From Anaerolineales bacterium (GTDB taxonomy: Bacteria; Chloroflexota; Anaerolineae; Anaerolineales; UBA11858): a stretch of 64,000 bases of DNA. Positions 11,934 through 64,000 of this stretch are shown in pieces. The stretch is from assembly GCA_049644685.1 (NCBI GenBank), contig JBARSJ010000071.1, forward strand, positions 35,829-99,828, read 5' to 3'. Positions within the stretch are counted from its first letter, which is position 1. Each line of letters begins with the position of its first letter. Position numbers and translations under genes: made by a program. The notes beneath the pieces were generated by a model. That model was not told the DNA's origin and did no database searches. It saw only the letters and a program-made list of their open reading frames with translations.

Positions 11934-13682
11934 TTAGATAAGTCCTTCCCAGCTGCCGTGAATGCCGTCATCAGTAACACCATAATAATAGCGGTAACCT
12001 TCCTGGGTCCGCTGGATCAAGTCATAGCTAGTATAATTCCCCCGCTTCTTCCGGGATATCAATCCCAGATCTCCCTGCCAGGTAATTTCCTTATTTTCCT
12101 TAACCTTGGGAAGTTTTGAATATTGGGAAATGGCATAATGCCACAGGCGGCGAGAGGATTGCAGGGTGACATTTTTTACCACACTGCCGTTCCGTAGATC
12201 CCTGACAGTGTAATACGTGTTACCTTCCCGCTTGGTTACGGAGACAATTTCCACACCGGTGCGGGGTGGATCATTAGGCTGTAGTTCGTTTTCAACAGAA
12301 TCCATCTTATCAACATCTTTTGATCCTGGAATTGGGAGCGGTTCAGCCTGCACCCGATCCGGTGGGGCAGCTTTTTTCTTCTCTCCCTGGAGAACCATTT
12401 CAACAATTTCATCCCGGACAGCCATGCCGGTTTCTGTTTCCGTGCGGAGATATATTTTATTGTCATCCACCGCATAAGGCGGGTCTTCTCCCCTGGGAAT
12501 CATAATCTGGATGACCTTCTTCCCTTCAGTTTCTTGGACTTCAAACTTACATTCCAGTTCCGGGCTGATGCGTTTACTGATCTCTGATTTTAACTTTTCT
12601 ACGCCCTGTTTCGGACGCGGCACTCCTTCAAAAGGCTTGCCCTTATCGGCTGATAAACCCAGGTACAAGATCCCTCCATTTGAATTCGCGAAAGCGCATA
12701 CATCGGCGATAATGGAATAGAGATAACCGCCTCGAACAGTGATTTTATCGTGAAAATCCTGAACAAAGGTTGCCCCTTCCTGCCTGGCATCCCGGATAAA
12801 GTCATAGGCTGGTTGAGAACTCAGCTGGTGGGGACGAGTCCGGGAGAAGTTGTTGCTATCAAAGAGCTCCCGCAATGCTTTAAAACTCCTCTCCTGTAAG
12901 CGGACATCAGTTGTTCGATCTCCTACTCCTAACTTGTTTTGAAAAGTGGATTTTTTGGTTATCAAATGAGCGTCAGAACCCTGGATGCAGTGCATTCGGC
13001 GGGGATATTCCGGTTTATTTCCACTGAAGAAAGACGCTGTAGAATGCCTGCCCTTCTTTGCCAAATCTGTCACCTCTATTGCAATCAAATGAGGATCCTG
13101 GGTATAAGCAATTTTGGTTTGCCCTCCGAAAGGAAAGCGGCGCATCGCAACCCCATTATTAGAGTTAGCATGGGCGGCGATTGCCATGCCGCCTGCATCA
13201 TGGATGCTTTTGTAGGCGGTTAACACATCTACACTTGCACCTACGGTAACTGAGCCTACATCCAATTTTTCGGAAGGGATGTTTAGCTCTAGCAGCAGGT
13301 GTTCAATATCCCTGACCGGTTTGCCTTCTGGAAAAATAGCCAGGATATGAAAACCAAACGTAGCGGTAAATTCAAATCCGGGCAGTACCAGTACCCTTTT
13401 TAATAAACGCTGGTATTCCGCCAGGCGGGTTTCTTCCTCCGGGAGCAAGCGATTTAGCTGTTGAAGCAATTTTAATTGCTCAATCTCTTCCTGCATCCGG
13501 CGGTACCCTGCCACAGTGTTATGGTCTGTAAATGCGATAATATCCAGACCTTTATTTGCGGCTTGTTTTAATATATCTAAATATCCAATTTCCGGCTGCA
13601 AATAATCTTCAGAAGCCGGTGTATGTAAATGTAAATCCATGGTGTACCAGGTCAATCCGGTACGGTTATTTTTTGCAGACAC
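11934..13682 (-). CDS. PHP-domain phosphoesterase fused to AlbA_2 (Schlafen-like) putative DNA-binding domain and an unassigned C-terminal domain
   Basis: [25 protein letters not shown] (PHP metal ligands); mid region [19 protein letters not shown]...[11 protein letters not shown] resembles AlbA_2. Confidence 0.75.
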
Positions 13683-41178: not shown

Positions 41179-41255
41179 AATCGCAGCTAGCTGTAGAACC
41201 CATCTTCGGGGGAGAACAGCCTTTATCTTCTCAACTGCCCTGATATTCCAAGATT

Positions 41256-41310
41256 AAAGGAAGCGGTATCCTTCTGAGGATACCGTTTCCAGGGTTGTGG
41301 GGCTCCTGCT
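41256..41310. repeat. 55-bp direct repeat, copy 1 (contains 13-bp-stem hairpin)
   Basis: AAAGGAAGCGGTATCCTTCTGAGGATACCGTTTCCAGGGTTGTGGGGCTCCTGCT; 52/55 identical to 41501-41555. Confidence 0.9.
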
Positions 41311-41335
41311 CTAGCGTTGTAAACAAACTCCGTGG

Positions 41336-41448
41336 GATAAATCCCCCGGCTAAAAACTGCGCCCGTTGGGCTTACAATCATAGACTGAGTATTAGTTTAG
41401 CCCAATTTATTGGGCGTTGTTTTTAGCCCGGTCATTCATGACCGGGTG
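41336..41448. repeat. structured ~113-nt repeat, copy B
   Basis: Collinear with 32039-32152; hairpin stems differ by paired substitutions (CCCGGTCAT..ATGACCGGG vs CCCGGACAT..ATGTCCGGG). Confidence 0.75.
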
Positions 41449-41500
41449 AGAGAGGGAATGGTTTCCTTTCTCTACCGATCAAGGGAGGGATCTCAATATC

Positions 41501-41555
41501 AAAGGAAGCGGTATCCTTCTGAGGATACCGCTTCCGGGGTTGTGGGGCTCCCGCT
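41501..41555. repeat. 55-bp direct repeat, copy 2 (perfect hairpin GGAAGCGGTATCC-ttctga-GGATACCGCTTCC)
   Basis: Lies just downstream of the minus-strand gene 41589-42104; on the minus strand the hairpin is followed by TTTGATATT. Confidence 0.9.
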
Positions 41556-50896: not shown

Positions 50897-51050
50897 AAAT
50901 CCAACAATCCTCACTATTTATTAATTACTGTCCTTCATCTCCCAGTCCCCCAGTCACCTGTCCTGAGTAGCGCGACAGAGGAGCGCGTATCGAAGGGCTC
51001 AGTCCCAATTTCACACCCTTTCTCCCTCCGGCGTATCCAGCCGGTCCTCA

Positions 51051-51209
51051 CTATTTACTACTTACTGAATACTGATTACGGGGATGGCATTTTTCATGGA
51101 AGAGAATGAATCGTCTGATCCAGCTGGAATAAGCCTGTTCGGTACGGTAGGCGTAATTTTTTCGGCGGATGGTATCCCGTACCTGGTCAAGCAGTTTCTT
51201 TTTGGTCAT
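51051..51209 (-). pseudogene. intI: integron integrase (IntI) remnant: N-terminal ~43 codons only
   Basis: Not in ORF track. My translation: MTKKKLLDQVRDTIRRKNYAYRTEQAYSSWIRRFILFHEKCHP|RNQYSVSSK*. The part before | matches the IntI N-terminal SAM-like domain (IntI1 [38 protein letters not shown]); RBS AAGGGGG. Confidence 0.8.
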
Positions 51210-51293: not shown

Positions 51294-51379
51294 CGATAAC
51301 ACAATAATATATTACATACCAATAGTAGGATAACAACCTAATGTGTTATCCCGCAGGTGAAACATAATTAACGTTAGGC
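51294..51379 (+). other. candidate attI region ending in core site GTTAGGC
   Basis: GTTAGGC at 51373-51379; core-like GTTATC boxes at 51294-51300 (inverted), 51328-51334 (inverted), 51345-51351 (direct); GGATAACA-n8-TGTTATCC inverted repeat 51328-51351. Confidence 0.55.
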
Positions 51380-51401
51380 AGCCATTCGATCGGGGATAAG
51401 T

Positions 51402-52064
51402 ATGTCACAGATACTACGAATTCTAATCTACGTCATATTTGGGATCCCACTCATCTTAATCGTGCTGCATACGATAGTGCGAATCATCAGGCACTTTTAT
51501 AAGTTTCCAATGCCCGAATTCTTTGCCAATATCATCGACAATCCACTTCGCCGGCGAATCCAGCCCCCAAATAACACCCCTACCAGGCATAAGATTGAAC
51601 CAGGAATGAAAGTTTTGGAAGTAGGTCCAGGAAATGGAAGCTATACAATGGCAACTGCCCGTAGAGTTGGGGAGAATGGAAAAGTCATAACAATAGATAT
51701 CGAACCGAAGATGATTGATCGAGTTATGAAGAGAGCCCAAATTGAGGGTATTAAGAATATAGAGGCTCGCGTTGCGAATGTATTTGACCTTCCTTTCGAA
51801 GATGGTTATTTCGATGCAGTTTATATGATTACTGTGATTGGTGAGATCCCCACTCCAGAGAGAGCGATGAGAGAGTTCTATCGGGTTTTATCGCCGCAAG
51901 GCACATTGTCATTCAGTGAACTATTAATGGATCCTGATTATCCGCTCGCAGGTTCGATCGAAAAAAATGCACATTCGGTCGGCTTCCGACTACAGGAAAA
52001 GGTCGGGAACTTCTTCCATTACACATTAATTTTCGAGAAGGATAATTTATTGAAAGCTGCCTAA
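51402..52064 (+). CDS. cassette 1: class I SAM-dependent methyltransferase with N-terminal TM helix
   Basis: VLEVGPGNGSYT (motif I), ITIDIEP, FDAVYM; stop TAA lies inside the attC R'' box GCCTAAC. Confidence 0.85.
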   Translation: MSQILRILIYVIFGIPLILIVLHTIVRIIRHFYKFPMPEFFANIIDNPLRRRIQPPNNTPTRHKIEPGMKVLEVGPGNGSYTMATARRVGENGKVITIDIEPKMIDRVMKRAQIEGIKNIEARVANVFDLPFEDGYFDAVYMITVIGEIPTPERAMREFYRVLSPQGTLSFSELLMDPDYPLAGSIEKNAHSVGFRLQEKVGNFFHYTLIFEKDNLLKAA

Positions 52065-52153
52065 CCCCCGCTTCACCCGACAGCCGGTTAGGGCGCCCAG
52101 AGTTAGAGAACTGGAAAGGAAGACCCGGCTGCGGGTGAGCTCATCCGTTATGC
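52059..52153 (+). other. attC site 1 (95 bp)
   Basis: R'' GCCTAAC ... R' GTTATGC; arms CACCCGACAGCCGG / CCGGCTGCGGGTG pair leaving an unpaired A. Confidence 0.85.
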
Positions 52154-52162
52154 TAAATCCGA

Positions 52163-52570
52163 GTGCTTGGAATGCAAATCTTTACAATGACTGATATTAC
52201 GATGAAGAAAGAGAAAAAATATTCACCGAGTGGCATTATTACTATTACATTACTGCTTTCTCTCGCAGTGGTCAATGCTTTTTGGTTAATCGCAAGTTGG
52301 CATGGTGGTGCTTTGATAGCCCTGGCATTCTATTTAGTAATATCTTATCTTTGCCTCAGAAGGCAACATTTCCAAGCAGGTGTAATCGCGGGTATCCTCG
52401 GATTTGGAATTCATATATATGAGTTATTTGTACTGGGGACGAGTGAATTGATAGGAATTGATCAAGTTTACTTCTACGTGAATCTGATTCTTCCTATTCC
52501 TCTCACTATCACAAGTTATTTGGCATCTCACAAGGAATCTGCTGGACATGAAGAGAAAACAAATTCTTAA
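52163..52570 (+). CDS. cassette 2: small 4-TM membrane protein, unknown function
   Basis: Hydrophobic helices; start uncertain (GTG 52163, ATG 52172/52187/52202). Confidence 0.6.
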   Translation: MLGMQIFTMTDITMKKEKKYSPSGIITITLLLSLAVVNAFWLIASWHGGALIALAFYLVISYLCLRRQHFQAGVIAGILGFGIHIYELFVLGTSELIGIDQVYFYVNLILPIPLTITSYLASHKESAGHEEKTNS

Positions 52571-52583
52571 ACTGAGAGATTAC

Positions 52584-52669
52584 GCATAACCCACGCTCCA
52601 CCCGAACCTTCGATACGCCCATTCGCTACTCTCAGGGCTTCTCAGGACGGGTGAGCTTTTCCGTTAGCC
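52584..52669 (+). other. attC site 2 (86 bp)
   Basis: R'' GCATAAC (reverse complement of cassette-2 start GTTATGC) ... R' GTTAGCC; loop consists of a CCTTCG...CTCAGGAC element. Confidence 0.8.
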
Positions 52670-52713
52670 AGCATAATAGCTCATATATCTGACCAATATA
52701 GGAGGAGGAATTC

Positions 52714-53394
52714 ATGCTTACAAACAGTCAGCTGATCAGAATAATTTCCCTCTTTTCCTTGCTTGTGTGTTTGCCCTTCATCACCGCTTGTTCAAACGCT
52801 GAGCAGGATCTCCCCCTGGAGCGGGTATCCCTGTCGAAACACGCTTGCATAAGTGGTAGCAGCTTTACCCCACACCTGCCATTAGGCGTCAATGATCAAA
52901 TCAAGGCACCGGCTCTCGCCGGAGGTACTGTCAGGTCCGGTGATTTCCTGATTTCACTCTGGTTAATTTGCGATCCATCCCTTGCCTCAGATGACCCGGA
53001 TTTCCCAGAATACTCATGGCAAGAGTTCAGCGAAGTGCGGTATCTGGGCTTCCTTTCTGGTTGGGAGTATTTAGGGGACCCCCCGGACCAGGAGATCAAG
53101 GAATCTTTGACAATCAATGGGGAGGTCATAAGTGGGCACATAATCGCATCTCACACCGACCCTGAAAGAAGCTTGTCTAGAGGCGAGGGGCATGCAAGTT
53201 ATGGTCCGATCAACACCGAAAACCAAATCGTTGCCCAGGCCCTTGCCGCTGGAGAACCCGTTGATATCGTACTTACTATCTTTGGTTCTAAAACCCTTGC
53301 CGAAGTGCACCTGCGCGCATCGTTTGAGGAAACGCCGGATGGCTACCGCCTTCTCAGTGCCGAGATCCTGACGAACACTGGAAAACTACCATAA
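52714..53394 (+). CDS. cassette 3: lipoprotein of unknown function
   Basis: Signal peptide plus lipobox LPFITAC; RBS GGAGGAGG. Confidence 0.7.
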   Translation: MLTNSQLIRIISLFSLLVCLPFITACSNAEQDLPLERVSLSKHACISGSSFTPHLPLGVNDQIKAPALAGGTVRSGDFLISLWLICDPSLASDDPDFPEYSWQEFSEVRYLGFLSGWEYLGDPPDQEIKESLTINGEVISGHIIASHTDPERSLSRGEGHASYGPINTENQIVAQALAAGEPVDIVLTIFGSKTLAEVHLRASFEETPDGYRLLSAEILTNTGKLP

Positions 53395-53552
53395 TTGATA
53401 ACAGGAGGGCTTTACCGCCATGTTGATTGGGTATACCTACCATCACTTGATCGGGTATCATTCCCCATAATTATTGGTGCCCCGGTGTTTTACAATCTTC
53501 TCTTACCGCTGTTTTCTTTTTCCTTAATGGTCTCCCGTTTTATCTGAATGCG

Positions 53553-53652
53553 GGCTAACCCCCGCTCCACCCGACAGCCAGGGGCGGACCGGGGACCGAA
53601 AACGGAAGACCGGGAAAAACAATCTGGCTGCGGGTGAGCTATTCCGTTGGGC
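53553..53652 (+). other. attC site 3 (100 bp)
   Basis: R'' GGCTAAC (reverse complement of cassette-3 start GTTAGCC) ... R' GTTGGGC; arms CACCCGACAGCCAG / CTGGCTGCGGGTG. Confidence 0.85.
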
Positions 53653-53737
53653 GGCTGCGTTGCATGGTCAAGCTTCGAGAGAGCCAAAATAGTTGAGCAA
53701 TATACAGATGGCAGTCACAGCAGGAGGTCATGATCTG

Positions 53738-54397
53738 ATGAAATCAAATGTTGAGATAATCCAAGATATCGTTGAGCAGGTCGTTAATCAAAAGAAAATC
53801 GATATATATGACCAGTACATCAGCGAGGATTACATCTCGCGAGGATCTCCATATGTCGGTATGGGTTTTTCTGTAGACAGCTCAGGGAATAAGCACATCA
53901 TTGAAATCATTGTCCCTGGCAGCCCTGCCGAGGGGAAGCTCCAGGTGGGAGACGAGCTGCTCTGGGCAGAGGATGAACACCAGCGTTGGGTCACTTATGA
54001 GGATATAAAGCAGCGTATTTTGCAGAGTTATCGGGGCAACAAATACAAGGTGGGAGTACGTCGGGGTAATCAGACTCTCGAGGGTGAATTGACCAAAGAT
54101 TTATTCAAGGGCTTCGATACCCCCAAGGATCAGGCAAAGTCGGATCTGCGGGAGTTTATGACGAAAGAATTTCCAGATTTAAAAGCCACCATAAAGCAAA
54201 TTCTCGCAGATGGGGATATGGTTGTTTGTTTGCTGGAGTATCGCGGTAACCACGCTAACTTCGAGCGAGAGGCAGTTTGGCGAGAGGCCTGGTTTGTACG
54301 CCTGTCTGAAGGGAAAATCGTCGAGGACTGGACTGTTTTTGATGGAACTTCCTACTTTAATCAGCTTGGCTTCCAGATCATTCCGCCTAGCACCTGA
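53738..54397 (+). CDS. cassette 4: SnoaL/ester-cyclase-like protein with PDZ-like insertion
   Basis: ATG 53738 sits 10 nt after AGGAGG (ORF track starts at TTG 53693); NVEIIQDIVEQV... and DMVVCLLEYRGNH...GKIVEDWTVFD flank VPGSPAEGKLQVGDELL. Confidence 0.65.
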   Translation: MKSNVEIIQDIVEQVVNQKKIDIYDQYISEDYISRGSPYVGMGFSVDSSGNKHIIEIIVPGSPAEGKLQVGDELLWAEDEHQRWVTYEDIKQRILQSYRGNKYKVGVRRGNQTLEGELTKDLFKGFDTPKDQAKSDLREFMTKEFPDLKATIKQILADGDMVVCLLEYRGNHANFEREAVWREAWFVRLSEGKIVEDWTVFDGTSYFNQLGFQIIPPST

Positions 54398-54489
54398 TAC
54401 ATCTCGAATTTAAGATCTTTTCCTGCGATCGATTTTGGTATGTTGCAGGAAGAATGGGAAAATAGGATTTGAAAATAGTACTAAACGCC

Positions 54490-54615
54490 GCCCAACCACG
54501 CGTTAACGCTGACCCGGTTGTCGCCACGCTCCAGCCTGCTAGGTCTCGCGTAAAATCTTTTCGTCGTGCGGGGTTTAGAAGTCAAACCGCTGGGTAGGTT
54601 ACGCAAATGTTGGGT
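54490..54615 (+). other. attC site 4 (126 bp), divergent sequence class
   Basis: GCCGCCCAAC is the exact reverse complement of cassette-4 start GTTGGGCGGC; R' GTTGGGT; arms GCGTTAACGCTGACCC / GGGTAGGTTACGC with unpaired T and G. Confidence 0.75.
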
Positions 54616-54666
54616 TGCAGAAAATCAAAGATCACATTTAGAACATCAAAGTCATAAGGAGCATCA

Positions 54667-55578
54667 ATGTGCACATGTGAGAAATCGAAGATTGTATTTG
54701 ATACGACCACGTTAGAGAAGATAGTCAATGATCCCCAATGGGTTCTTGAAAATGAAGAGAAATTTTGGGCTGAGTACCGAGCTCAGATATTGACACGTAA
54801 ATGGGCAGAACATGTCAAATATGAAATTCCATACGAAGAATGGAGAGAGAAGATTGAAGGGTGGAAAAACTTATCGCTAGATGAACGAGAAAACCATGAA
54901 TTAATGAAGGTCGCCCAGCGGATACTATCAGCAAAAGATGAGTTTCTAGAGAAAGCATTGCCGCATGATTGTTCATTTTTGCCGGATGGCGTTGATTTGA
55001 GCGTAACAGTGCAGTTCACAGCATTTGTTCCACCATTTGCGTTTGCGATGGAAGACCTTGTAATCGATGTGGCCTCGAAGTATTGGAAAGGTAATCCAGA
55101 ACATGTATTGAATTTGCTTGTTCATGAAATATTTCATGTGGGTTACAGTTATTATCTAACAATACAAAATGAAAAGGAATTAGTTGAAGAAAGTTTATAT
55201 AAAATTCTGGACAATATTGTGAATGAAGGAATATGCACATATGTAGGGTATTGTGCTTTGCCAATCTTTCCAGTAGAAGATGAGCGGGATTATCGAATGC
55301 TGGAATATAATGATGAAGTTCACAGGTTGTTTGCGGATACGAATACTGTACTTTCGCAATATGGCATATTATCTGATGAAGAATTACAAAAACTATCTTG
55401 GGATAAGGGTGTCATTGGACGGGCATATTACGTAACAGGTGCCCATATGTGCAAAACAATTGATGAGACTAAGGGCAGAGATGCATTGATTGAAGTTTAC
55501 TCAAAAGGACCAATCTCAATTATTGAATATTACAACACAGTTGCAAATGATGATCTGAAAATATTACTTCCTGAATGA
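54667..55578 (+). CDS. cassette 5: putative HExxH zinc-peptidase-like protein (DUF2268-like)
   Basis: LLVHEIFHVGY motif; RBS AAGGAG; family assignment tentative. Confidence 0.6.
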   Translation: MCTCEKSKIVFDTTTLEKIVNDPQWVLENEEKFWAEYRAQILTRKWAEHVKYEIPYEEWREKIEGWKNLSLDERENHELMKVAQRILSAKDEFLEKALPHDCSFLPDGVDLSVTVQFTAFVPPFAFAMEDLVIDVASKYWKGNPEHVLNLLVHEIFHVGYSYYLTIQNEKELVEESLYKILDNIVNEGICTYVGYCALPIFPVEDERDYRMLEYNDEVHRLFADTNTVLSQYGILSDEELQKLSWDKGVIGRAYYVTGAHMCKTIDETKGRDALIEVYSKGPISIIEYYNTVANDDLKILLPE

Positions 55579-55591
55579 TAAGACAAGTGCA

Positions 55592-55722
55592 ACCCAACCC
55601 TCCATGTAGCCGACCCAGCGGGGCTGGGATGGTGAGCGTGGCGAAAATTGCACTCGAAGGTTCTAGATTACAATATTCGGGATTGAAAATCCCCGCTGGA
55701 TCGGCTAATGAAATCGTTATGC
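55592..55722 (+). other. attC site 5 (131 bp), divergent sequence class
   Basis: GCAACCCAAC is the exact reverse complement of cassette-5 start GTTGGGTTGC; R' GTTATGC; arms CATGTAGCCGACCCAGCGGGG / CCCCGCTGGATCGGCTAATG with unpaired G. Confidence 0.75.
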
Positions 55723-55748
55723 GGTAAAAAGTTTTATCTAGGTAAAAA

Positions 55749-57053
55749 ATGGTTAAGAAAAATGTAATTAATATCTTTTGCTTGGTCCTTGTTCTTTCAA
55801 GCTGCTCACCAGTCGACAAACATAACCCCGATCAGCCAAGCACAGAAGAACGTATCGATGATCTTTTCACTCGCTATACCAATGCAGGTGAGTTTTCTGG
55901 CTCCATCCTAGTCGCTAAAGGAGATCAAGTTCTCTTTAGGAATGGCTATGGTTTTACGGATCGGGAAGAACAAATTCCCAATACCCCAGATACACAGTTT
56001 AGTATCCAATCAATTACTAAACTTTTCACCTATGCCTCTGTAATGATGGAAGTTAAAGCAGACCATATTTCACTAAATGACCCAGTTGAGCAATATTTCC
56101 CCGGTTTTCCCAATGGTGACAAGATCACGATTGACCACCTCCTCCACCATCGGTCGGGACTCTTCCATTACCCTCATGAAGTACCCGATCATGAATACGG
56201 ATCACTCTCGACCCCCATCACAATCAATGCTCTGATCAAAGAATTCGAAGGCTATCCGTTGAAGTTTGAGCCTGGAGAACAATACGGATACAGCAACGCA
56301 GGCTACTCTATACTGGCGAGAGTAGTTGAGAATCTGAACGATACACCTTTTGACGAGTACCTTGAGGCAAAACTCTTCGCTCCCACGGGAATGCACCAGA
56401 CTACAGCTGATTGGGAAACAGCCTCTCAGGATATTGCAATAGGGTACGAGAAAGTGGATGGTGAGTTCATTCGCAGCTCAGCCGATCACCCATCCCACTT
56501 CATTGGGTCCGGAACAACCTACACCACGATTGACGATATGTATAGCTGGTACAAAGCCGTTTATATCAACGGCTCGATGTCTGAATTCTCATCTGGGGGA
56601 GGAGATGGTGGCGGGATGGGATACCGAGCTATATTCTGGCCTATACCCTCCTTCGATCTGGTAATCATTATCCTGAGTAACTATCGGGATGCACCTGTTT
56701 ATGAGCTTGTAACTGAGGTGGTTGATATTCTGTTAGAAGAGACCACATTCATTGATCATGATCCAAAAACCTTGGAAGCTTTAATTGGTCACTACATGGC
56801 TGATTCGGGTTATGGAGTATTCAACTACCGGATTTATGGATCAAATGAAAAATTATTTGTGTCAGTCACCGATTTCCTTGGTGTATCACGCGTCTATGAA
56901 CTCCGCCCCATCTCACCAAATCAACTCGCATTCTTGACGGATGGACGGCTCACGGGCCAAACGCTCACATTCAAATGGGGGGAAGATGCCAATTCTCACG
57001 AGTTTCTGTTCGACATGAACTTATTGCAGTTGAAGGCCATACGCGATGATTAA
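55749..57053 (+). CDS. cassette 6: beta-lactamase-fold serine hydrolase (class C/PBP-like) lipoprotein
   Basis: Lipobox VLSSC; SxxK (SITK), YxN (YSN); 434 aa. Confidence 0.8.
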   Translation: MVKKNVINIFCLVLVLSSCSPVDKHNPDQPSTEERIDDLFTRYTNAGEFSGSILVAKGDQVLFRNGYGFTDREEQIPNTPDTQFSIQSITKLFTYASVMMEVKADHISLNDPVEQYFPGFPNGDKITIDHLLHHRSGLFHYPHEVPDHEYGSLSTPITINALIKEFEGYPLKFEPGEQYGYSNAGYSILARVVENLNDTPFDEYLEAKLFAPTGMHQTTADWETASQDIAIGYEKVDGEFIRSSADHPSHFIGSGTTYTTIDDMYSWYKAVYINGSMSEFSSGGGDGGGMGYRAIFWPIPSFDLVIIILSNYRDAPVYELVTEVVDILLEETTFIDHDPKTLEALIGHYMADSGYGVFNYRIYGSNEKLFVSVTDFLGVSRVYELRPISPNQLAFLTDGRLTGQTLTFKWGEDANSHEFLFDMNLLQLKAIRDD

Positions 57054-57118
57054 TATTGGGATAGATTGGTTGCGATTGATCAAGTTTTGATACTGTTATT
57101 AATTGTAAGAATTCGACC

Positions 57119-57244
57119 GCTTAACCCCCGCTCCACCTGACTGCCGGTTTTTTACTGTTATCCCGCTTTTATTCCCCCTTATCGGTTTCAGTTCTATAAT
57201 CAATACCAGAAACACCTGGCAGCAGGTGAGCTCATCCGTTATAA
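57119..57244 (+). other. attC site 6 (126 bp)
   Basis: ACCGCTTAAC vs expected ACCGCATAAC (9/10 to cassette-6 start); R' GTTATAA; arms CACCTGACTGCCGG / CCTGGCAGCAGGTG. Confidence 0.8.
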
Positions 57245-57283
57245 AGCAATTAGGAATACGGCTAACTCCATGGAGGTAAATTC

Positions 57284-58108
57284 GTGGATACAAAGAACGT
57301 TACCCTTCTACTATTCTCCCTCTTCTTCCTTTGCAGTGCCTGTCAAAACACTTTACCTGAACCCAATCCAACCCAAACCATTTCTTTGACACCTATCGAT
57401 TCTCCCATCCCAACACAGGTGAAACCAACAGCTGTCCCGGAATCAGAAGTAATCCCAATCAATGAAGACTGGAATGTATATAAAAATCACCGTTTGGGAT
57501 TTTCAATCAAGATCCCAGCCAACCCGATCTGGAGCAGTGGTGCTCAATGTTCAGAGTTAAATTTACCAGAAGAAGGCTTTTTACCAGTTGCCGTCATTGA
57601 AAGAGAAGATCGGATTTACATCACCACAGAAACAGCTCTTCAGTTCCCATATTCAGAACGGGAGGAGTCCCTCGAGGTTAAGCCCGCCAGGGGAGAGAAT
57701 TGTGAGATTGTTAAAGTTACCCTGGAACTCCTCGAAAACGAAGATTATTTTCCTTTGGATCTCTGGGAAATTGCTATCAAACCAATAATGTCAGAAAATG
57801 ATCTCGAGTTTTTCGTAGACGAATATTACGGTGATTGCTATTATGTAACAGAAAAAACTCCCCTGAGCGACAGGGGATTAATAAAAGTAAAAATCAGTGG
57901 TAATGAAGATCCTAATGTAGATCCTGACGCTACCTGCGTGGTGCGCTGGGGTTATCTCTATTATTATTCAGTGGAGTTCTCAAGAGCTGCCACATGGATG
58001 TTCGGCCAGAGCTTGCATTTTTGCGCCAGCGGAGCCAACCAGGATTGTTATGATAACGATATGCTGCGCAGCTTTGAGTTCATTCCTGTCATATATCCAC
58101 CGGAATAA
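57284..58108 (+). CDS. cassette 7: Cys-containing lipoprotein of unknown function
   Basis: GTG start 7 nt after GGAGGT; lipobox FLCSAC. Confidence 0.7.
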   Translation: MDTKNVTLLLFSLFFLCSACQNTLPEPNPTQTISLTPIDSPIPTQVKPTAVPESEVIPINEDWNVYKNHRLGFSIKIPANPIWSSGAQCSELNLPEEGFLPVAVIEREDRIYITTETALQFPYSEREESLEVKPARGENCEIVKVTLELLENEDYFPLDLWEIAIKPIMSENDLEFFVDEYYGDCYYVTEKTPLSDRGLIKVKISGNEDPNVDPDATCVVRWGYLYYYSVEFSRAATWMFGQSLHFCASGANQDCYDNDMLRSFEFIPVIYPPE

Positions 58109-58112
58109 TGTT

Positions 58113-58277
58113 TTATAACCCCCGCTCCACCCGACAGCCAGGTTGGATGGCAATTATAATGGGATGGGCATTAAATCTTTAATAACAAGACCAGCAGACT
58201 TTTTGTTTTATACTGATTAAGGGCTGCGGGTGCCCTTCGCTGTACTCAGGATGCTTCGCGAAGCTCATCCGTTAGGC
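58113..58277 (+). other. attC site 7 (165 bp) with nested 29-nt insert
   Basis: R'' TTATAAC ... R' GTTAGGC; GGGTG[CCCTTCGCTGTACTCAGGATGCTTCGCGA]AGCTCATCC. Confidence 0.8.
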
Positions 58278-58440
58278 TTTTTTTTTAATAATCATTGTTT
58301 GGCCTTTGGATCATGTGGGTTATGCAGAAACTATAAACGATGTGATTGTCAGTCACAATAAGACAAGTTGAAACAATAAAAGTATAATGCCATCACCATT
58401 CACAAGTTCGATATGAAAAATCTATTTAGGAGAATAATCA

Positions 58441-58779
58441 ATGGAAAGTTCTAATAAAACAAACCATCTGGCAATTGTTAGTTTTGTTAGTGGGATGATA
58501 GCCCTCATATGTATTGTGTTAATATTTGTATTTTACAACTCGGCAGAAACCGCAGAGGGCATCATCAACATCACAGATGGAATAATAATGCCTGTGCGAA
58601 ATCTCTGTGTGATAGTGACGCTATTAACGGGTATTCTTGCGGTTAAAGATATAAAGAAAACGGGCGGAACTAAAAAAGGAAAAATATTTTCCTGGTTCGG
58701 CATAGTTGTTGGAGCTGGCTGGATCCTCTTTGGATTGCTTGTTGGCATAACATTTCTCATAGCTGAAATTCTTCACTGA
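58441..58779 (+). CDS. cassette 8: small 3-TM membrane protein (DUF4190-like)
   Basis: RBS AGGAG; HLAIVSFVSGMIALICIVLIF-type helices. Confidence 0.6.
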   Translation: MESSNKTNHLAIVSFVSGMIALICIVLIFVFYNSAETAEGIINITDGIIMPVRNLCVIVTLLTGILAVKDIKKTGGTKKGKIFSWFGIVVGAGWILFGLLVGITFLIAEILH

Positions 58780-58812
58780 ATCCTTAAGCTGAGAATAGAA
58801 TCGCCAAGAGCC

Positions 58813-58967
58813 ACCTTACTCCCGCTCCACTAGACAGCAAGATGGACGCTGCGCTCACGACAGGGGTAAAGAGACGGAAGACGGGAGACCGGAGGTCGCT
58901 TCGCTTCCGACCGGGTAGACTGATACTGATACTTAGATCCTTCTGCGAGTGAGTTCATCCGGTAGGC
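58813..58967 (+). other. attC site 8 (155 bp), both core boxes mutated
   Basis: ACCTTAC in place of RYYYAAC and GGTAGGC in place of GTTRRRY; internal blocks CCCGCTCCAC...GAGTTCATCC conserved. Confidence 0.65.
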
Positions 58968-58970
58968 ACT

Positions 58971-59567
58971 TTGAAACAAGATATTTTGGTCGAGATAATC
59001 GATATGGGAAAACAAAGCCTTAGCCTCCTTGAACGCTTTTCTTTGAGGGCAGAAGAATTGATAATGACACGATTGGTGCCAAAGGACAATCCAGGCCCCA
59101 TATTCAAGAGACTGTTCAAAACACCGATATTCTTTTACCGTATTGGCCTTCCTCTGTTTAGCAGCTTCGTCCTGTTATTGACTACAACCGGGCGAAAGAG
59201 TGGGAAACAGCGATACACGCCGCTTGAATATCAACGCGAGCAAGGAACGGGTAATCCAATCATCATGGCAGGTTGGGGGGGAAAAACGGATTGGAGGCTC
59301 AATATTAAGGCAAATCCGCATGTTCATGTTCAGATCGGACAAGAATGCTTTGACGCCATCGCTGAACCTCTTAGCGACGAAGAAATCGCAGCAAGGTTGA
59401 CAGAGGCCATGAAGATAAATCCAAGGAGTGCGAAGATATAGTCACGGTGGGTGGGAGAAAGTGTGAGTCTAGCGGATCCTGGCAGTGTAGCCAGAGCTGT
59501 GAAGTATTTTCCATGCTTTCGCTTGAAACCGATCAATGAATATGTTGGAAGTGATCAAAGCACCTAA
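58971..59567 (+). pseudogene. cassette 9: deazaflavin(F420)-dependent nitroreductase-family (DUF385) gene interrupted by in-frame TAG at 59439-59441
   Basis: LLLTTTGRKSGKQRYTPL, WRLNIKANPHVHVQ; the frame continues after TAG to TAA (59565-59567, inside R'') and encodes ...VKYFPCFRLKPI, resembling the family C-terminus. Confidence 0.65.
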
Positions 59568-59802
59568 CCTCCGCTCCACCTGACTGCCGGGATGGTTCGC
59601 TGCGCGAACGACCGGGAGAAAGAGACCGATGACCGGGGGAGGTTTCACCTCCGACCGGTTTTACTGGGAAAGAAATACTGATTACTGACTTTTGTCCCGG
59701 ATGCGGGTGCCCTTCGCTGTACTCAGGATGCTTCGCGACCCTTCGTCTCCCCCTTGGCTACGCTCGGGGCTCGCTCAGGACAAATGAGCTCATCCGTTAG
59801 GA
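59562..59802 (+). other. attC site 9 (241 bp) with two tandem nested inserts
   Basis: R'' ACCTAAC ... R' GTTAGGA; arms CACCTGACTGCCGGG / CCCGGATGCGGGTG; inserts at 59710-59738 and 59739-59781. Confidence 0.8.
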
Positions 59803-59846
59803 TGCAGCTTTGATTAGATCAACCAATAAAAAGGAAGGTCGGAAAG

Positions 59847-60758
59847 ATGACAAATAAAGATGGAGAACCAAAACCTTCAGAAACCGCCTTATTTGCTGCC
59901 TTGCGTAGAACCATTGCAAATATAGACTTCAATAATGAGAATTTTGGACCAGACAATATGGCCGAATATTTTTTACCCCCTCACTTTAGATTTTTTCTAA
60001 AATTCAAAAAAATACGAGCAAATACCAAAGCAAAATTAAATGACTTTTTGCCTGGGTTGAATGAATACATGATTGCTAGAACAGCCTATTTTGATCGGCT
60101 ATTCAATGATGCTTTACACAACGAAACACCTCAAATTGTACTGCTTGGCGCAGGATACGATACACGAGCGTATCGTTTTGCAGAGTTAAATCAAGGGACA
60201 GAAATATTTGAATTGGATATTGGTCCAACCCAAGAGAGAAAAAAGAAATGTTTAAAAAAGGCAAAGATAGCCATCCCCCAACAAGTCACTCTCGTTCCAA
60301 TAAATTTCAATAAAGACTCATTGAAAGATGTTCTAGAAAAAGCGGGATTTCAAGACCATAAAAAAACTCTCTTTGTATGGGAAGGGGTGAGCTATTACCT
60401 CGATGCGGAATCAGTCAATTCAACCTTGGATTTCGTCAGCCATCTTCCAAATCATGAAAGTTCTATAGCATTTGATTACACTATTTCAATTTCAGAAGAA
60501 AAAATAAATGATTATTATGGCGTAAAAGAATTTTCTCAAACGATGAAGGAGCAACATGCAGATGAGAAACTCATGTTTTCCATTGATGAAGATGAAACAG
60601 AATCATTTTTAGAGCTGAGAGGGTTGAATATAGTTGAACATTTGGATAGTGAAGAGATCGAGAGAACATTTTTAATAGAAGAAAATGGATCACTAATAGG
60701 TCAAATTACCGGGCATTTTCGTTTTGTATTGGCTACACAAAAAAAGCTTCAAGAGTAA
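59847..60758 (+). CDS. cassette 10: SAM-dependent O-methyltransferase of the LCMT / TIGR00027-like family
   Basis: QIVLLGAGYDTRAYRF, WEGVSYYL motifs; RBS AGGAAGG. Confidence 0.8.
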   Translation: MTNKDGEPKPSETALFAALRRTIANIDFNNENFGPDNMAEYFLPPHFRFFLKFKKIRANTKAKLNDFLPGLNEYMIARTAYFDRLFNDALHNETPQIVLLGAGYDTRAYRFAELNQGTEIFELDIGPTQERKKKCLKKAKIAIPQQVTLVPINFNKDSLKDVLEKAGFQDHKKTLFVWEGVSYYLDAESVNSTLDFVSHLPNHESSIAFDYTISISEEKINDYYGVKEFSQTMKEQHADEKLMFSIDEDETESFLELRGLNIVEHLDSEEIERTFLIEENGSLIGQITGHFRFVLATQKKLQE

Positions 60759-60764
60759 TGAGAA

Positions 60765-60924
60765 ACCTAACCCCCGCTGCACTTGTCAGCCAGGGGCAGA
60801 CCGAGGACGGATGACGGAAGACCGAAGCCTGGAAACTTACGCCAGGCAGCAGGCGGTCTTCGCAAACCTGTCCTGAGTGAAACGAAGAGTAATCAAAGGG
60901 CATCGCTAAGCTCATCTGTTAGGC
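60765..60924 (+). other. attC site 10 (160 bp) with inverted nested insert
   Basis: R'' ACCTAAC ... R' GTTAGGC; arms CACTTGTCAGCCAGG / CCAGGCAGCAGGCG; insert between GGCG and AGCTCATCT. Confidence 0.8.
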
Positions 60925-60930
60925 ACTAAA

Positions 60931-61383
60931 ATGGCAAAAACTAATCCAATATCAAAAGAATTGATCGCACCGTGCGGAATGAATTGTGCCATCTGCAGCC
61001 GGTATCTTTCCTACCTCAATAATTTGAATCGCAGCCAGTGTATTGGTTGTCGTCCGCGGAATGAGGTTTGTAAATACCTATTTCAAAAATGTACTGGCAT
61101 AAATCATTCTTCAAAAGGAGATGCTGCCTTTTGCTATGATTGCGATCAGTTTCCTTGTAAGCAAATAAATCGGATGGATGACCGCTATAGAAAAAATTAT
61201 GCGATGAGCGTGAAGGATAATTTGATATTTATAGACCAGATGGGAATCAAGAAATTTATTAAAGAACAACAGCAGAAATATCAATGTTCTAAATGTGGTA
61301 ATCAAATATCAATACATAATAGAAAATGTTTCAATTGCGATGAGGTAACACGCTTGGTTGAAAAAAGTAGTAAGAATTATTAA
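60931..61383 (+). CDS. cassette 11: Cys-rich protein (DUF3795-like)
   Basis: CGMNCAICSRY, CIGCRPRNEVC, CYDCDQFPC, CSKCGN, CFNC clusters; ATG only 6 nt after the R' box. Confidence 0.65.
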   Translation: MAKTNPISKELIAPCGMNCAICSRYLSYLNNLNRSQCIGCRPRNEVCKYLFQKCTGINHSSKGDAAFCYDCDQFPCKQINRMDDRYRKNYAMSVKDNLIFIDQMGIKKFIKEQQQKYQCSKCGNQISIHNRKCFNCDEVTRLVEKSSKNY

Positions 61384-61397
61384 TGATTTATCCTAGT

Positions 61398-61600
61398 ACC
61401 TAACCCCCGCTTCACCTGACCCGGCACCTTCGGTGCGGTAAGCAGTAGTTTTGTAAGTAATAAGCAGTTTAAAAATTCAGATTAATGACAGCGTTAGTGC
61501 TGAGATTGGTTCTATTTACTATTTACTACTTACTAATTACTAAGCCGAGCGGGTGCCCTTCGCTGTACTCAGGATGCTTCGAGAAGATCATCCGTTAGGT
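61398..61600 (+). other. attC site 11 (203 bp) with heptamer tract and nested 29-nt insert
   Basis: AGTACCTAAC vs expected AGTGCCTAAC (9/10); R' GTTAGGT; GGGTG[CCCTTCGCTGTACTCAGGATGCTTCGAGA]AGATCATCC. Confidence 0.8.
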
Positions 61601-61613
61601 CGCACAGAATTCT

Positions 61614-62195
61614 ATGATGATTGATGTAATACAAATTCTGTTTCTGTTTTCTGTCATACTTGAAATGATATATTTAGTTTTATTTATTCTGACGAAAAAG
61701 TTACCAGGCTTTCGCTTCTGGCCTCCCCCAAAGCCTCAATCTTGGCAATTCTTTGTGTCTTGGTTAATTGCGGGTTTGGTGGCTGTAAACTTTCTTGTCT
61801 TGGGACTGTTAGATTTCGACAGTTTCATACTCCCCAACTTAAAACAAAGGCTTCCATTTGCCATCAGTCTCTTTTTGATAGGTTCATTGTTAGGTTCTTG
61901 GGCATTCGGGACATTTGGGCTGAAGAATACAATTGGTGTTGATAATAAGCTAATCACAGGTGGTCCATATAAATATTCTCGGAACCCACAATACATTGGG
62001 GACAGTTTGAACATTGTTGGATATATGGTATTAACGAATTCATGGATGATCTGGATTATCGGTTTGTTAGGTGTATTATTGAATCTTCTTGCACCGTCTA
62101 TTGAAGAACCCTGGCTAGAGGAACGGTATGGAGAAAGATACCTTGAATACAAACGCAGGGTTCCGAGGTTCTTTGGTAAAGTTGGGACGGGATAA
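61614..62195 (+). CDS. cassette 12: ICMT/PEMT-family membrane methyltransferase
   Basis: GGPYKYSRNPQYIGD, multiple TM helices, C-terminal EEPWLEERYGERYLEYKRRVPRF. Confidence 0.8.
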   Translation: MMIDVIQILFLFSVILEMIYLVLFILTKKLPGFRFWPPPKPQSWQFFVSWLIAGLVAVNFLVLGLLDFDSFILPNLKQRLPFAISLFLIGSLLGSWAFGTFGLKNTIGVDNKLITGGPYKYSRNPQYIGDSLNIVGYMVLTNSWMIWIIGLLGVLLNLLAPSIEEPWLEERYGERYLEYKRRVPRFFGKVGTG

Positions 62196-62200
62196 GCGCG

Positions 62201-62370
62201 TCCTAACCCCCGCTCCCCTTCGACTGTGCTCAGGATCTGCGACACCTGACCGCCTATAAACTGCCTGAGTGACTTGGAGATTATATGATGGAGTGAAGCG
62301 AGATTCGCCAAATTGGAATATACTGAATACCGATTACTGATTACTGAAAACTAGTGTCAGGGGGCAGGTG
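62201..62370 (+). other. attC site 12, 5' half plus L' arm only; R' box not found
   Basis: GCGTCCTAAC vs expected GCGACCTAAC (9/10); 27-nt insert 62216-62242 in the left arm; GGCAGGTG at 62363-62370 is followed by another element instead of AGCTCATCCGTTAGG. Confidence 0.55.
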
Positions 62371-62453
62371 CCCTTCGATTCTGCTACGCTCCACTCAGGA
62401 CAGGCTTGTCGAGGGGCTTTGCGAATCAGGGGAACAAATTATCACCTGATTGT

Positions 62454-62483
62454 TTACCACTAACCACAATAGCAGTATATAAT
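62454..62483 (+). promoter_or_regulatory. candidate internal promoter upstream of MFS gene
   Basis: TTACCA - 18 nt - TATAAT (62478-62483), 38 nt upstream of ATG 62521. Confidence 0.35.
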
Positions 62484-62520
62484 CAGACAATATTCACGAA
62501 GCCTCGTTGGAGCAAACACA

Positions 62521-63762
62521 ATGGAAACAACTGAAAAACAACCTTTGCTGACACCCCTGATGAGATGGTTCATGTTCGCCATGGTGCTGGCTAATGTAGC
62601 CAGCGCCATGTATCCGATGCTCATGCCCATCTACCTGACGGAGCTGGGCGCCAGCATCACTCAGGTTGGGTTAATATTCACACTCACATCAGTCGTGGTT
62701 TTGATCTTACAGATTTTCGGCGGCTGGGTTTCCGACTCAATTGGACGCCTGCGTTCGATTGCTATCGGCAGTGTGGGCGGGATATTTGGTTTTGTGGCGG
62801 TGCTGCTAGCCCCAACCTGGCAGTGGATGTTAGCCGCCTTATGTGTGCTTCAGTTCCCCTATGCTCTTGTCGGACCAAGTTTTGGGGCTTTTATCGCGGA
62901 GAATTCCACCACAGAGAACCGCGGTAAAGTGTATGGGATCACCGACACAATCTTCCAGATCACCGGCGTAATCGGCCCACCCGTAGGCGGGTTACTGGTC
63001 GGTCGATATGGGTTCAAAATGATGTTCCTGGTTTCTGGGAGTCTTTATGCTTTAGCGGCTATTTTACGGATCTGGATGGCTTCCACAGTCCGCACCACCA
63101 CAGAAGCCAACCCCCGAAAACTCTCGACATCTTCCTTGAAAACCAGCGTAAAAACCATGTTCGGCATGATCCTGGGCGGCGGGGTGCTGACCTGGATTTT
63201 CGTCACCGATGGGGTGCGTGATACCGCTTTCCGGCTCTCGGGCGAGCTACAGCCTCTTTACCTGGAACAGGTCGCTGGGATCTCCGTGGAGCAGATCGGC
63301 ATTTTGGGGTCAATCTTCTCCATCGCGATGATGTTTACCCCCATCCTTTCGGGAAAAATGGTCGATAAATATGGGGAACGCGTTCCGATCTCTTTGGGGT
63401 TCCTGCTGGTGTTCTTCGCTTTCATGATCTTCTTGCAGGTCGGTAACTTCGTTGGATTTGCGATAACCTGGATCGTTTTTGGGATCGGAGTGGGGCTGCT
63501 CAGCCCGGCGTATCAATCCCTGATTTCAAAGGTGGTACCCCAAAAGATGTTAGGTACCTTCAGCGGATTATTCCGCAGCAGCCTGGGATTGATCTCTCTC
63601 CCAGCCCCCTACATCGGCGCCCGGCTGTGGGAAACTTTCTCTCCCAAAGTTCCCTTCGTCATCACTTCGATCGCGGCCCTGATTACCATCATCCCGACCT
63701 GGTTGTTCTTCAAAGTACCGGATGAGCCGCCAGATCTCGATCCTGCACCCGAAACGAACTGA
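62521..63762 (+). CDS. cassette 13 (or fused 12/13): MFS transporter
   Basis: 12 predicted TM helices; motif-A-like GWVSDSIGRLRS; RBS GGAG. Confidence 0.85.
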   Translation: METTEKQPLLTPLMRWFMFAMVLANVASAMYPMLMPIYLTELGASITQVGLIFTLTSVVVLILQIFGGWVSDSIGRLRSIAIGSVGGIFGFVAVLLAPTWQWMLAALCVLQFPYALVGPSFGAFIAENSTTENRGKVYGITDTIFQITGVIGPPVGGLLVGRYGFKMMFLVSGSLYALAAILRIWMASTVRTTTEANPRKLSTSSLKTSVKTMFGMILGGGVLTWIFVTDGVRDTAFRLSGELQPLYLEQVAGISVEQIGILGSIFSIAMMFTPILSGKMVDKYGERVPISLGFLLVFFAFMIFLQVGNFVGFAITWIVFGIGVGLLSPAYQSLISKVVPQKMLGTFSGLFRSSLGLISLPAPYIGARLWETFSPKVPFVITSIAALITIIPTWLFFKVPDEPPDLDPAPETN

Positions 63763-63926
63763 AATAGCCGGGGGTTACAAAAAATGGCAATTTGCCTTCT
63801 TTGCCAAAAAGAAAAGGATGTCTGGTTTTTGGATAGCAAAACGAGAACTAAGCAATGTTTTTGAAAATCTTTATTGGTGGAATTGAACTTAAGTTACTTA
63901 TGCCATTATCATTACCTATAGTTACA

Positions 63927-64000
63927 GGCTAACCCCCGCTGCCCTTTACCCGAAGGGCAGACTTGTCCGCGACCGAAGTTCGTGCCGAAGGGCCTGTCCT
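63927..64000 (+). other. attC site 13 (truncated by window end)
   Basis: GGCTAACCCCCGCTGCC start matches the family; ends with CGAAGGGCCTGTCCT, an inverted CCCTTCG...CAGGACAGG-type element. Confidence 0.65.

Follow-up and report, generated by a model that had tools for sequence, protein, structure and literature searches.

The closest described class to the elements reported here is the CGTC/TGTC-tagged superfamily of repetitive extragenic palindromic (REP) sequences (Di Nocera, De Gregorio & Rocco 2013, PMC3733652). These repeats are found across phyla without a dedicated transposase, and some of their families are regularly inserted inside palindromes; how they spread is stated in that work to be an open question. 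The locus described here lies in a 64,000-nt stretch of DNA from an Anaerolineales bacterium (contig JBARSJ010000071.1; the whole stretch is referred to below as the window), the right-hand 13 kb of which, read on the + strand, is a chromosomal integron. Four of its attC recombination sites carry inserts of 27 to 29 nt. Sequence comparison indicates that attC sites acquired such units on several occasions at a position in the L box that is exact to the nucleotide, at or opposite an extrahelical base, on either arm of the hairpin. Like the tagged REPs, which are 20 to 40 nt long, the inserts are short and non-coding, have relatives in several phyla, there also in head-to-head dimers, are accompanied by no transposase gene in the scanned part of the window and are in some cases placed inside palindromes. 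Unlike them, the 29-nt insert has no tag (CATC stands in its place) and no perfect 8- to 9-bp stem starting with AT, and no self-fold is predicted for it. The REPs are dispersed in many extragenic copies per genome, whereas the inserts and their relatives are confined within the window to the integron (about 11 in 13 kb against none in the other 51 kb), and the published description of the REPs does not include an insertion point exact to the nucleotide within a larger hairpin's stem (PMC3733652).

Two much larger kinds of element also occupy attC sites. Insertion sequences of the IS1111-attC group (ISPst6, ISKpn4 and ISPa25) resemble the inserts in taking one fixed attC position in one orientation and in making no long target duplication. 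They differ in encoding a DEDD transposase and a target-reading seekRNA, whereas the inserts and their relatives measure 27 to 54 nt and have no open reading frame (ORF) or guide capacity; neither a DEDD gene nor a seekRNA region between subterminal inverted repeats was found in them. IS1111-attC elements are kilobase-scale, group IIC-attC introns are ribozymes that commonly carry a reverse-transcriptase ORF, and both kinds of occupant are autonomous and orders of magnitude larger than the inserts. The introns, too, enter attC sites in a single orientation and recognize the hairpin by its structure (PMC3001079), but they use a different insertion point, and their ribozyme domains were not detected here by Rfam. 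To these two kinds of attC occupant the inserts add a third, far smaller one.

Comparable by mechanistic analogy are the REP/REPIN-RAYT and IS200/IS605 systems, whose HUH enzymes recognize hairpins, act on single-stranded DNA, make no target duplication and show a strand bias. In contrast to these, the inserts have no GTAG tag and no constant 4- to 5-nt target word and are too short to hold two end hairpins; a scan of 30 window ORFs revealed no RAYT or TnpA (Y1 HUH). Small dispersed repeats (SDRs) are alike in being shorter than 30 nt, non-coding, placed inside other repeats or palindromes and accompanied by tandem heptamers, as in this array. SDR1 to SDR8, of 21 to 27 nt, were reportedly judged mobile by Elhai et al. 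in 2008 from comparisons of filled and empty sites, SDR5 having entered HIP1, and we know of no SDR in an attC site. Their sequences are unrelated to those of the inserts, and SDRs have been reported from Nostocaceae only (PMC5861425), whereas the core of the inserts occurs in at least eight phyla. In the limited literature accessible to us, neither REP-like units that occupy a fixed point in the L box of attC sites nor a cross-phylum CCCTTCG-N-CTCAGGAT unit were found to be described, though the latter in particular may have been.

Inserts at one point of the attC hairpin

The attC sites of the array are pairs of xTAAC and GTTAGGC (R''/R', RYYYAAC...GTTRRRY), found at 13 positions in one orientation between unrelated ORFs. 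The arms of 10 of the 13 follow a common plan, xTAAC-CCCC-GCTCCACCYGAC ... GCGGGTG-AGCTCATCC-GTTAGGC, and the empty family members attC1, attC3 and attC6 read GCGGGTG^AGCTCATCC (^ marks the junction). A first-pass annotation of the window had described four strings as insertions at this one position relative to the attC consensus, and comparison with the empty sites bore this out, the strings and their junctions being recovered base for base. In attC7 (58233 to 58261), attC9 (59710 to 59738) and attC11 (61556 to 61584), all on the + strand, the 29-mer CCCTTCGCTGTACTCAGGATGCTTCG(C/A)GA (type a) lies between GCGGGTG and AG(C/A)TCATCCGTTAGG, in the middle of the L box of the 3' arm. The junction is GGGTG^AGCTC in attC7, and attC9 and attC11 have the same GGGTG^ junction; the attC11 copy has A for C at position 27 and hence a CGAGA tail. 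The 27-mer CCCTTCGACTGTGCTCAGGATCTGCGA (type c; 62216 to 62242, + strand) occupies the mirror position in the 5' arm of attC12, at CGCTC^CACCTG, at the extrahelical base, with flanks CCCCGCTC and CACCTGAC.

The junctions are unambiguous, as no base is common to an insert and either of its flanks, and the inserts have neither duplicated nor deleted target sequence. The pattern CCCTTCGNNGTRCTCAGGAT matched the window three times against 0.06 matches expected, and the looser pattern CCCTTCG-N3-33-CTCAGGA matched seven times against 0.01. An assembly artefact was ruled out by the presence of the inserts in independent assemblies of the same strain or of one that is 98.8% identical over 4.4 kb (L121 to L124). 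Scanned with a 26-nt part of the element, the full metagenome collection gave two further copies only, both at GGTG^AGCTC of attC-like sites (L118 and L119). All five copies of the full 29-mer found in the window and the collection are therefore at the attC junction, rather than being spread over genomes without positional preference. All six units at the L-box point, on either arm, have the same strand orientation.

An attC site is an imperfect hairpin whose central spacer is unpaired and which has an L box and, on its bottom strand, extrahelical bases (PMC5371416). Read from the R box, the helix of this family runs GCT/AGC, then a bulged G (C on the top strand), then CACCC/GGGTG. On the unbulged side, the 29-mers enter at the step from GCT to CACCC, directly across from the bulge nearest the R box, and the 27-mer enters at that bulge on the other arm; in the predicted structure, both types split the L box at the single discontinuity of the helix. 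Bottom strands of the empty sites attC1, attC2, attC3 and attC6, with both arms kept, were predicted to fold into a single long stem whose 3' half has two bulges of one base each, as canonical attC sites do. The canonical fold was not obtained for attC8 and attC10, which have no insert at the GGTG^ junction. Removal of the insert in silico from attC7, attC9 and attC11 gave the canonical fold. With its insert in place, attC7 had a minimum-energy fold without the canonical stem, and in attC11 the spacer GGATG was predicted to pair into the insert; in predicted folds, the expectation that the inserts disturb the stem was borne out.

In attC7 (58250 to 58266) and in L118, the boundary between 29-mer and attC forms a perfect 12-bp palindrome, GCTTCGCGAAGC, that includes a GCGAAGC motif; no such palindrome is present in attC11 or L119. 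GCGAAGC is a very stable DNA mini-hairpin.

A modular repeat family with relatives in many phyla

The view that the inserts are an unrelated class of element dedicated to attC sites is not supported: they belong to a repeat family whose ends, CCCTTCG and CTCAGGAY, are fixed while its middle varies, members of which also occur in attC loops and beside the remnant of the integrase gene, and the core of which is found in many phyla. About 11 members lie in the array, some of them in loops and some reversed. The 5' end CCCTTCG abuts the junction, the 3' box is CTCAGGAC/T, and the interiors differ. Beyond the four strings of the first-pass annotation, further members were found. Member b, of 48 nt (59739 to 59786, + strand), consists of CCCTTCG, a GC hairpin and CTCAGGACAAATG and lies directly 3' of the attC9 29-mer and 5' of AGCTC. 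Member d, of about 54 nt (62371 to 62424, + strand, 3' end approximate), is at the GGTG^ junction of attC12. Another member makes up the whole apical loop of attC2 (52607 to 52648, + strand) and has a counterpart in L119, and attC10 contains one on the - strand (60870 to 60889), which reads as the reverse complement CTCTTCGTTTCACTCAGGAC (inverted repeat I1). Only the start of the - strand members in attC13 is within the window (63940 to 64000); in L121, where they are seen in full, they are two tandem 48-mers of type b that abut CTCATCCGTTAGA and CTCATCC. No copy of the full 29-mer was found outside attC sites in the window or the metagenome collection; one family member lies outside any attC, beside the truncated intI (50960 to 50997, - strand).

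Taking the window, L118, L119 and L121 together, there are about 15 members, 9 to 10 of them at the L box. CCCTTCG occurs seven times in the integron and once elsewhere (13.1 and 50.9 kb of the window, respectively), and CTCAGGA[CT] occurs eight times and not at all, respectively; none of the family words was found in 10 kb of the syntenic chromosome of a relative. On the reverse strand the family has the general form (T)GTC/ATC-CTGAG-loop-CGAAGGG, which resembles the REPs with an unpaired CGTC (or TGTC/CCTC) end tag. The members that we letter b, d, e and g read TGTC-CTGAG there, several window members having the form TGTC-CTGAG-N-CGAAGGG; the 29-mer reads CATC-CTGAG and the 27-mer GATC-CTGAG. 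Where the published REPs have an 8- to 9-bp stem that starts with A-T pairs, a 4- to 5-nt loop and a short tail (PMC3733652), the units can at best pair CCT with AGG plus a G.A/A.G mismatch pair around a loop of 5 to 6 nt. A stem of CTGAG and CGAAG with tandem G.A pairs was considered and is unsupported by the energy models. Rfam returned nothing in 50.8 to 64 kb of the window at E<=1, nor in 18 related loci including L119 at the gathering threshold. Two scans of viral contigs gave no match, the first of them with a 6-N spacer that fits the 27-mer type and not the 29-mer, and a literature search with the sequence words returned primer matches only.

A scan with the 20- to 21-nt core, at one genome per species, gave at least 117 loci; the source genome was not among the matches listed, and many of those listed are chance matches in coding DNA. 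AAAC directly follows the core in 23 of the 120 matches listed, against about 0.5 expected by chance, typically as AAACTCCG. The core was found in at least eight phyla, and the matches followed by AAAC come from Desulfobacterota, Bacteroidota, Patescibacteria, Chloroflexota, Armatimonadota, Spirochaetota, Pseudomonadota, Binatota and others. In these matches it usually lies just 3' of CTGAG in hairpins of the form (C/T)GTC-AT-NNN...NNN-AT-CTC, and (C/T)GTCAT was present in 13 of 26 cross-phylum host units. The stems of these hairpins covary (ATTCT/AGAAT, ATTGC/GCAAT and ATTCCCG/CGGGAAT), and they often stand head to head with a second unit that bears a different insert at the mirror position. 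Other core matches form the loop of terminator-like hairpins, as in AAAAAACGTGTCGA[core]GACACGTTTTTT, and perfect closing stems of at least 7 bp were present in 10% of the matches listed, compared with 2.6% in controls with shuffled pairing. In their tag, AT-initial stems, head-to-head dimers and occurrence in several phyla, the host hairpins match the published description of the CGTC/TGTC-tagged REPs. The inserts of the window are one type within this modular family of small repeats, neither isolated nor strictly attC specific.

In Syntrophobacteria (L025, L056 and L082), we also noted composite palindromic elements of about 150 nt with outer arms CCATCCGGAAAC/GTTTCCGGATGG. They enclose a head-to-head GTCATTCTGAG...CGAAGAATCTC pair, with a different insert in each loop.

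Repeated gain and a proposed route of insertion

Related arrays hold empty as well as filled sites. L119 is such an array, and two of its attCs share an almost identical variable region of about 100 nt; one is filled (...CCAGGTG, the 29-mer and then AGCTCATCCGTTAGA) and the other is empty (...GCAGGTG^AGCTCACCCGTTAGC). attC12 of the window has the variable region of this pair, with the 27-mer in its 5' arm and the longer member at GGTG^, and its 5'-arm point is empty in both L119 attCs with the matching region. attC11 is similar to another empty L119 attC up to 61555, one base before its insert. When the arms alone were compared, none of the four filled sites had a filled site as its sole nearest neighbour, and three of the four were nearest to empty sites only; the arms of attC9 are as close to the filled attC7 as to attC1 and attC6, both empty. 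Since the filled sites do not form a clade in this comparison, it argues for several gains rather than for an ancestral attC subtype. The 27-mer is a separate acquisition at the mirror site, because its core is the variant ACTGTG, which is seen across phyla, and not the CTGTA of the 3'-arm copies. The earlier reading of the inserts as independent, targeted occupancies therefore held in part: gain more than once is supported by filled sites being nearest to empty ones and by the different variant at the mirror site, while "targeted" is an interpretation, and copying between arms would also fit the three 29-mers.

The explanation that we put forward, and to which we give about an even chance, is that the 27- to 29-mers are short non-coding units of a modular REP-like family that colonized the hairpins of a fossil integron by structure-directed insertion. 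REP-like units would enter single-stranded DNA in its folded state, at those points of a hairpin that are unpaired or kinked, such as loops and bulges, and the agent would be a structure-recognizing activity acting in trans, by analogy an HUH/Y1 enzyme of the REP-associated or IS200/IS605 type. The orientation of the mirror-site copy is consistent with this proposal. GGTG^AGC and GCT(C)^CACC are reverse complements, so a target read by its sequence in duplex DNA would be expected to give opposite orientations on the two arms, whereas insertion into one folded strand would give a direct orientation at the mirror site. The family in general is associated with hairpin loops and has a sharply defined 5' end, and members b and d use the same GGTG^ junction as the 29-mers. 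Selection for tolerated positions seems unlikely to be the source of the junction precision, because the integrase is dead in both species.

Several observations weigh against structure-directed insertion of REP-like units. The units on their own have no significant self-structure (z of about 0 for either strand, whether DNA or RNA parameters were used), and the 29-mer form lacks a clean CGTC/TGTC tag. None of the 30 window ORFs that were scanned is a transposase; roughly a dozen others of 150 aa or more lie outside that set. The left flanks vary by context (GGTG^, GCTC^, TGAG^ and CTGA^), with no single target word. The three window 29-mers are near-identical and have conserved attC arms around them, as copying between arms would also produce, and the orientation argument comes from a single 5'-arm insert (n = 1). 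Finally, the shared variable region could be a mobile piece itself, in which case the L119 pair would be weaker evidence of paralogy; the nearest-neighbour result from the arms is independent of that region.

Copying between arms, the main rival for the three 29-mers, we consider unlikely. A founding insertion, perhaps a microhomology copy of a composite REP fragment, would have spread between attC 3' arms by short-homology template switching or gene conversion, with (G)CGGGTG as the left homology arm and AGCTCATCCGTTAGG as the right, and the position would be inherited rather than targeted. This would fit the restriction of all known copies of the full 29-mer to one junction in one attC family. 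All window 29-mers have GTA where L118 and L119 have GTG, which suggests homogenization within the genome; the filled and empty L119 sites differ far more in their arms than in the variable region of about 100 nt; and the tail ...CGCGA followed by attC AG is similar to ...CGCGAAG in the outer REP of the cross-phylum composite, which hints at a junction at AG microhomology. However, the homology on the left spans no more than about 7 nt, and on the right attC11 is mismatched (AGATC) 3 nt from the junction and the flanks of L118 have diverged. The mirror-site 27-mer, with its different flanks and core variant, and the different members b and d at the same junction are also left unexplained by conversion. 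A shared position could alternatively reflect descent, if the insert-bearing sites were an old attC subtype in which new cassettes arose on a filled template and the variable regions were turned over later. The attC sites of one chromosomal integron are indeed homologous to each other, and heptamer repeats and other family members allow fast turnover of variable regions. We nonetheless regard descent as quite improbable: the filled sites are not mutual nearest relatives in their arms, near-identical variable regions are found in filled and in empty sites, and the family consensus and most members are empty.

A role for the insert as a selected functional attC module, which would modulate folding, freeze useful cassettes or act on the cassette transcript and would be tolerated or useful at this position alone, also seems to us quite improbable. 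The sequence is kept between two species, and within its attC the insert has local pairing options (CTTCGC/GCGAAG and GGGTG/CATCC) and forms the attC7 palindrome GCTTCGCGAAGC; yet the local folds are no better than those of shuffled sequences (z of -1.4 to +0.1), the palindrome is missing from attC11 and L119, other members with unrelated interiors sit at the same junction, and with the integrase dead in both species there is no recombination left to modulate. We attach very little probability to the strings being footprints of a larger excised or deleted element that targets attC, an IS1111-attC element or group IIC-attC intron whose ends would be CCCTTCGCTGTACTCAGGAT... and ...GCTTCGCGA. Such elements do insert at one fixed attC position and orientation (PMC11187229, PMC3001079). 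But the scanned window ORFs and the checked ORFs of L118 and L119 revealed neither a full-length element nor a transposase or reverse transcriptase, Rfam found no intron, and the 20-nt core occurs in many phyla within hairpin repeats of 25 to 50 nt, not at the ends of larger elements. To our knowledge, neither kind of element has been reported to leave such footprints.

Other candidate mechanisms were considered and rejected. The tail GCTTCGCGA is not a target duplication, as it does not covary with the differing left flanks. Quasi-palindrome correction by copying of the 3' arm into the 5' arm predicts a reverse complement, whereas the copy in the 5' arm is direct and differs in its core. The centre of the palindrome TGAG^CTCA as insertion point does not fit the 29-mers, whose junction lies 2 nt to the left, and only the reverse units of attC13 are at that centre. 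A constant target word of the IS200/IS605 kind is excluded by left flanks that differ with context. The units are also not miniature inverted-repeat transposable elements: their ends, CCCTTCG and ...CGCGA/CTCAGGAY, do not form inverted repeats, no target-site duplication is present, and a length of 27 to 54 nt compares with a typical 70 to 300 bp.

The locus is a natural series of filled and empty sites for the mobility of REP-like repeats and makes the question of that mobility testable. Its target is a well-understood hairpin, the junctions are exact, several sites are filled and several empty, both arms are hit at one helical position, and no working integrase exerts selection that would blur the pattern. 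Going further, and with considerable doubt, we suggest that the inserts report a hitherto undescribed, structure-guided "paste" activity that places units of no more than 30 nt at helix discontinuities (bulged bases and loops) of single-stranded hairpins without target duplication, that this activity is the missing mobility mechanism of the transposase-less CGTC-type REPs of many phyla, and that attC sites, being made to fold, act as natural traps in which single insertion events are recorded. Judging from the predicted folds and the known requirements of attC sites, cassettes whose second integrase-binding box is split would be immobile, which costs nothing here because intI is already dead. 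By freezing cassettes, splitting of the L box may contribute to the fossilization of chromosomal arrays, and filled attCs may escape attC-detection models.

The inactivated integron and its surroundings

The integron adjoins the genes amidohydrolase-parB-parA-pfkB-jag-yidC. Its intI remnant (51051 to 51209, - strand) is an ORF of 52 codons, of which codons 1 to 43 are an integron-integrase N terminus (PF13495); heptamer repeats and one family unit come after these 43 codons. A protein 100% identical to the 52-aa product is on record from an Anaerolineales metagenome-assembled genome (P0001), and many database homologues of the N terminus are also short fragments, of 43 to 76 aa, some of them cyanobacterial. 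The related assembly GCA_004196255.1 (L125) has the same synteny and a full-length intI with in-frame stops (785 to 1750 of L125). Together with the truncated intI of the window, this identifies a sedentary chromosomal integron that was inherited vertically and is now an inactivated "fossil". The cumulative GC skew has its minimum at about 42 to 46 kb of the window, which with the origin-proximal genes suggests that the attC bottom strands are on the leading-strand template, as they are in most such integrons (PMC5371416).

The cassette array runs on the + strand from the attI-side GTTAGGC (51373 to 51379) to the end of the window (51373 to 64000) and holds at least 13 cassettes and attC sites. 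The empty family members are attC1 (52060 to 52153), attC3 (53554 to 53653) and attC6 (57120 to 57245), and attC2 (52585 to 52670) is a minimal site with the family member as its loop. The 29-mer is held by attC7 (58114 to 58278), attC9 (59563 to 59803, where b follows it) and attC11 (61399 to 61601), and the 27-mer and d by attC12 (62202 to about 62460). attC8 (58814 to 58968) has no insert at the GGTG^ junction, attC10 (60766 to 60925) contains the reverse-orientation member, and attC13, with its reverse-orientation members, starts at 63927 and runs beyond the window. Two sites, attC4 (about 54493 to 54616) and attC5 (about 55592 to 55722), belong to other attC families and have neither the CCCCGCTCCACC arm nor family units. 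In attC10, the GGGTG arm has been lost and CATCGCTA^AGCTC stands in its place (60890 to 60925). In attC12, no AGCTCATCC-GTTAGG is recognizable 3' of the unit at 62371 (62371 to 62520), and cassettes 12 and 13 are therefore probably fused.

Most cassettes consist of a single ORF, predicted products including a methyltransferase, SnoaL-like, DUF5700, beta-lactamase-fold and LCM proteins, an F420H2 quinone reductase and a major facilitator superfamily (MFS) protein. Two cassette ORFs had no match on record in an exact-protein look-up. Between the window and the 98.8% identical strain (L121), substitutions are concentrated in the non-coding stretches around attC13. The MFS cassette is one ORF of 413 aa in the window (62521 to 63762) and two genes, of 126 and 277 aa, in L121 (2944 to 4185).

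Outside the array, an ORF at 11934 to 13682 (- strand) has the N-terminal region of TrlF/Ppl-type anti-phage AAA-like ATPases, at scores far under the family cut-offs. A pair of 62-nt direct repeats, 92% identical and with internal inverted repeats, lies at 41249 to 41555, near the GC-skew minimum and the rpmH/yidC/jag/parAB cluster, and could be an origin-related or regulatory element. Within the array, tandem heptamers (GAGACGG, AGACGGA, CTATTTA and TACTGAT) make up tracts in the variable regions of attC8 (58871 to 58894), attC10 (60798 to 60827), attC11 (61512 to 61542) and attC12 (62321 to 62347), and heptamers are also present beside the intI remnant. These tracts are reminiscent of the short tandemly repeated repetitive (STRR) sequences of cyanobacteria.

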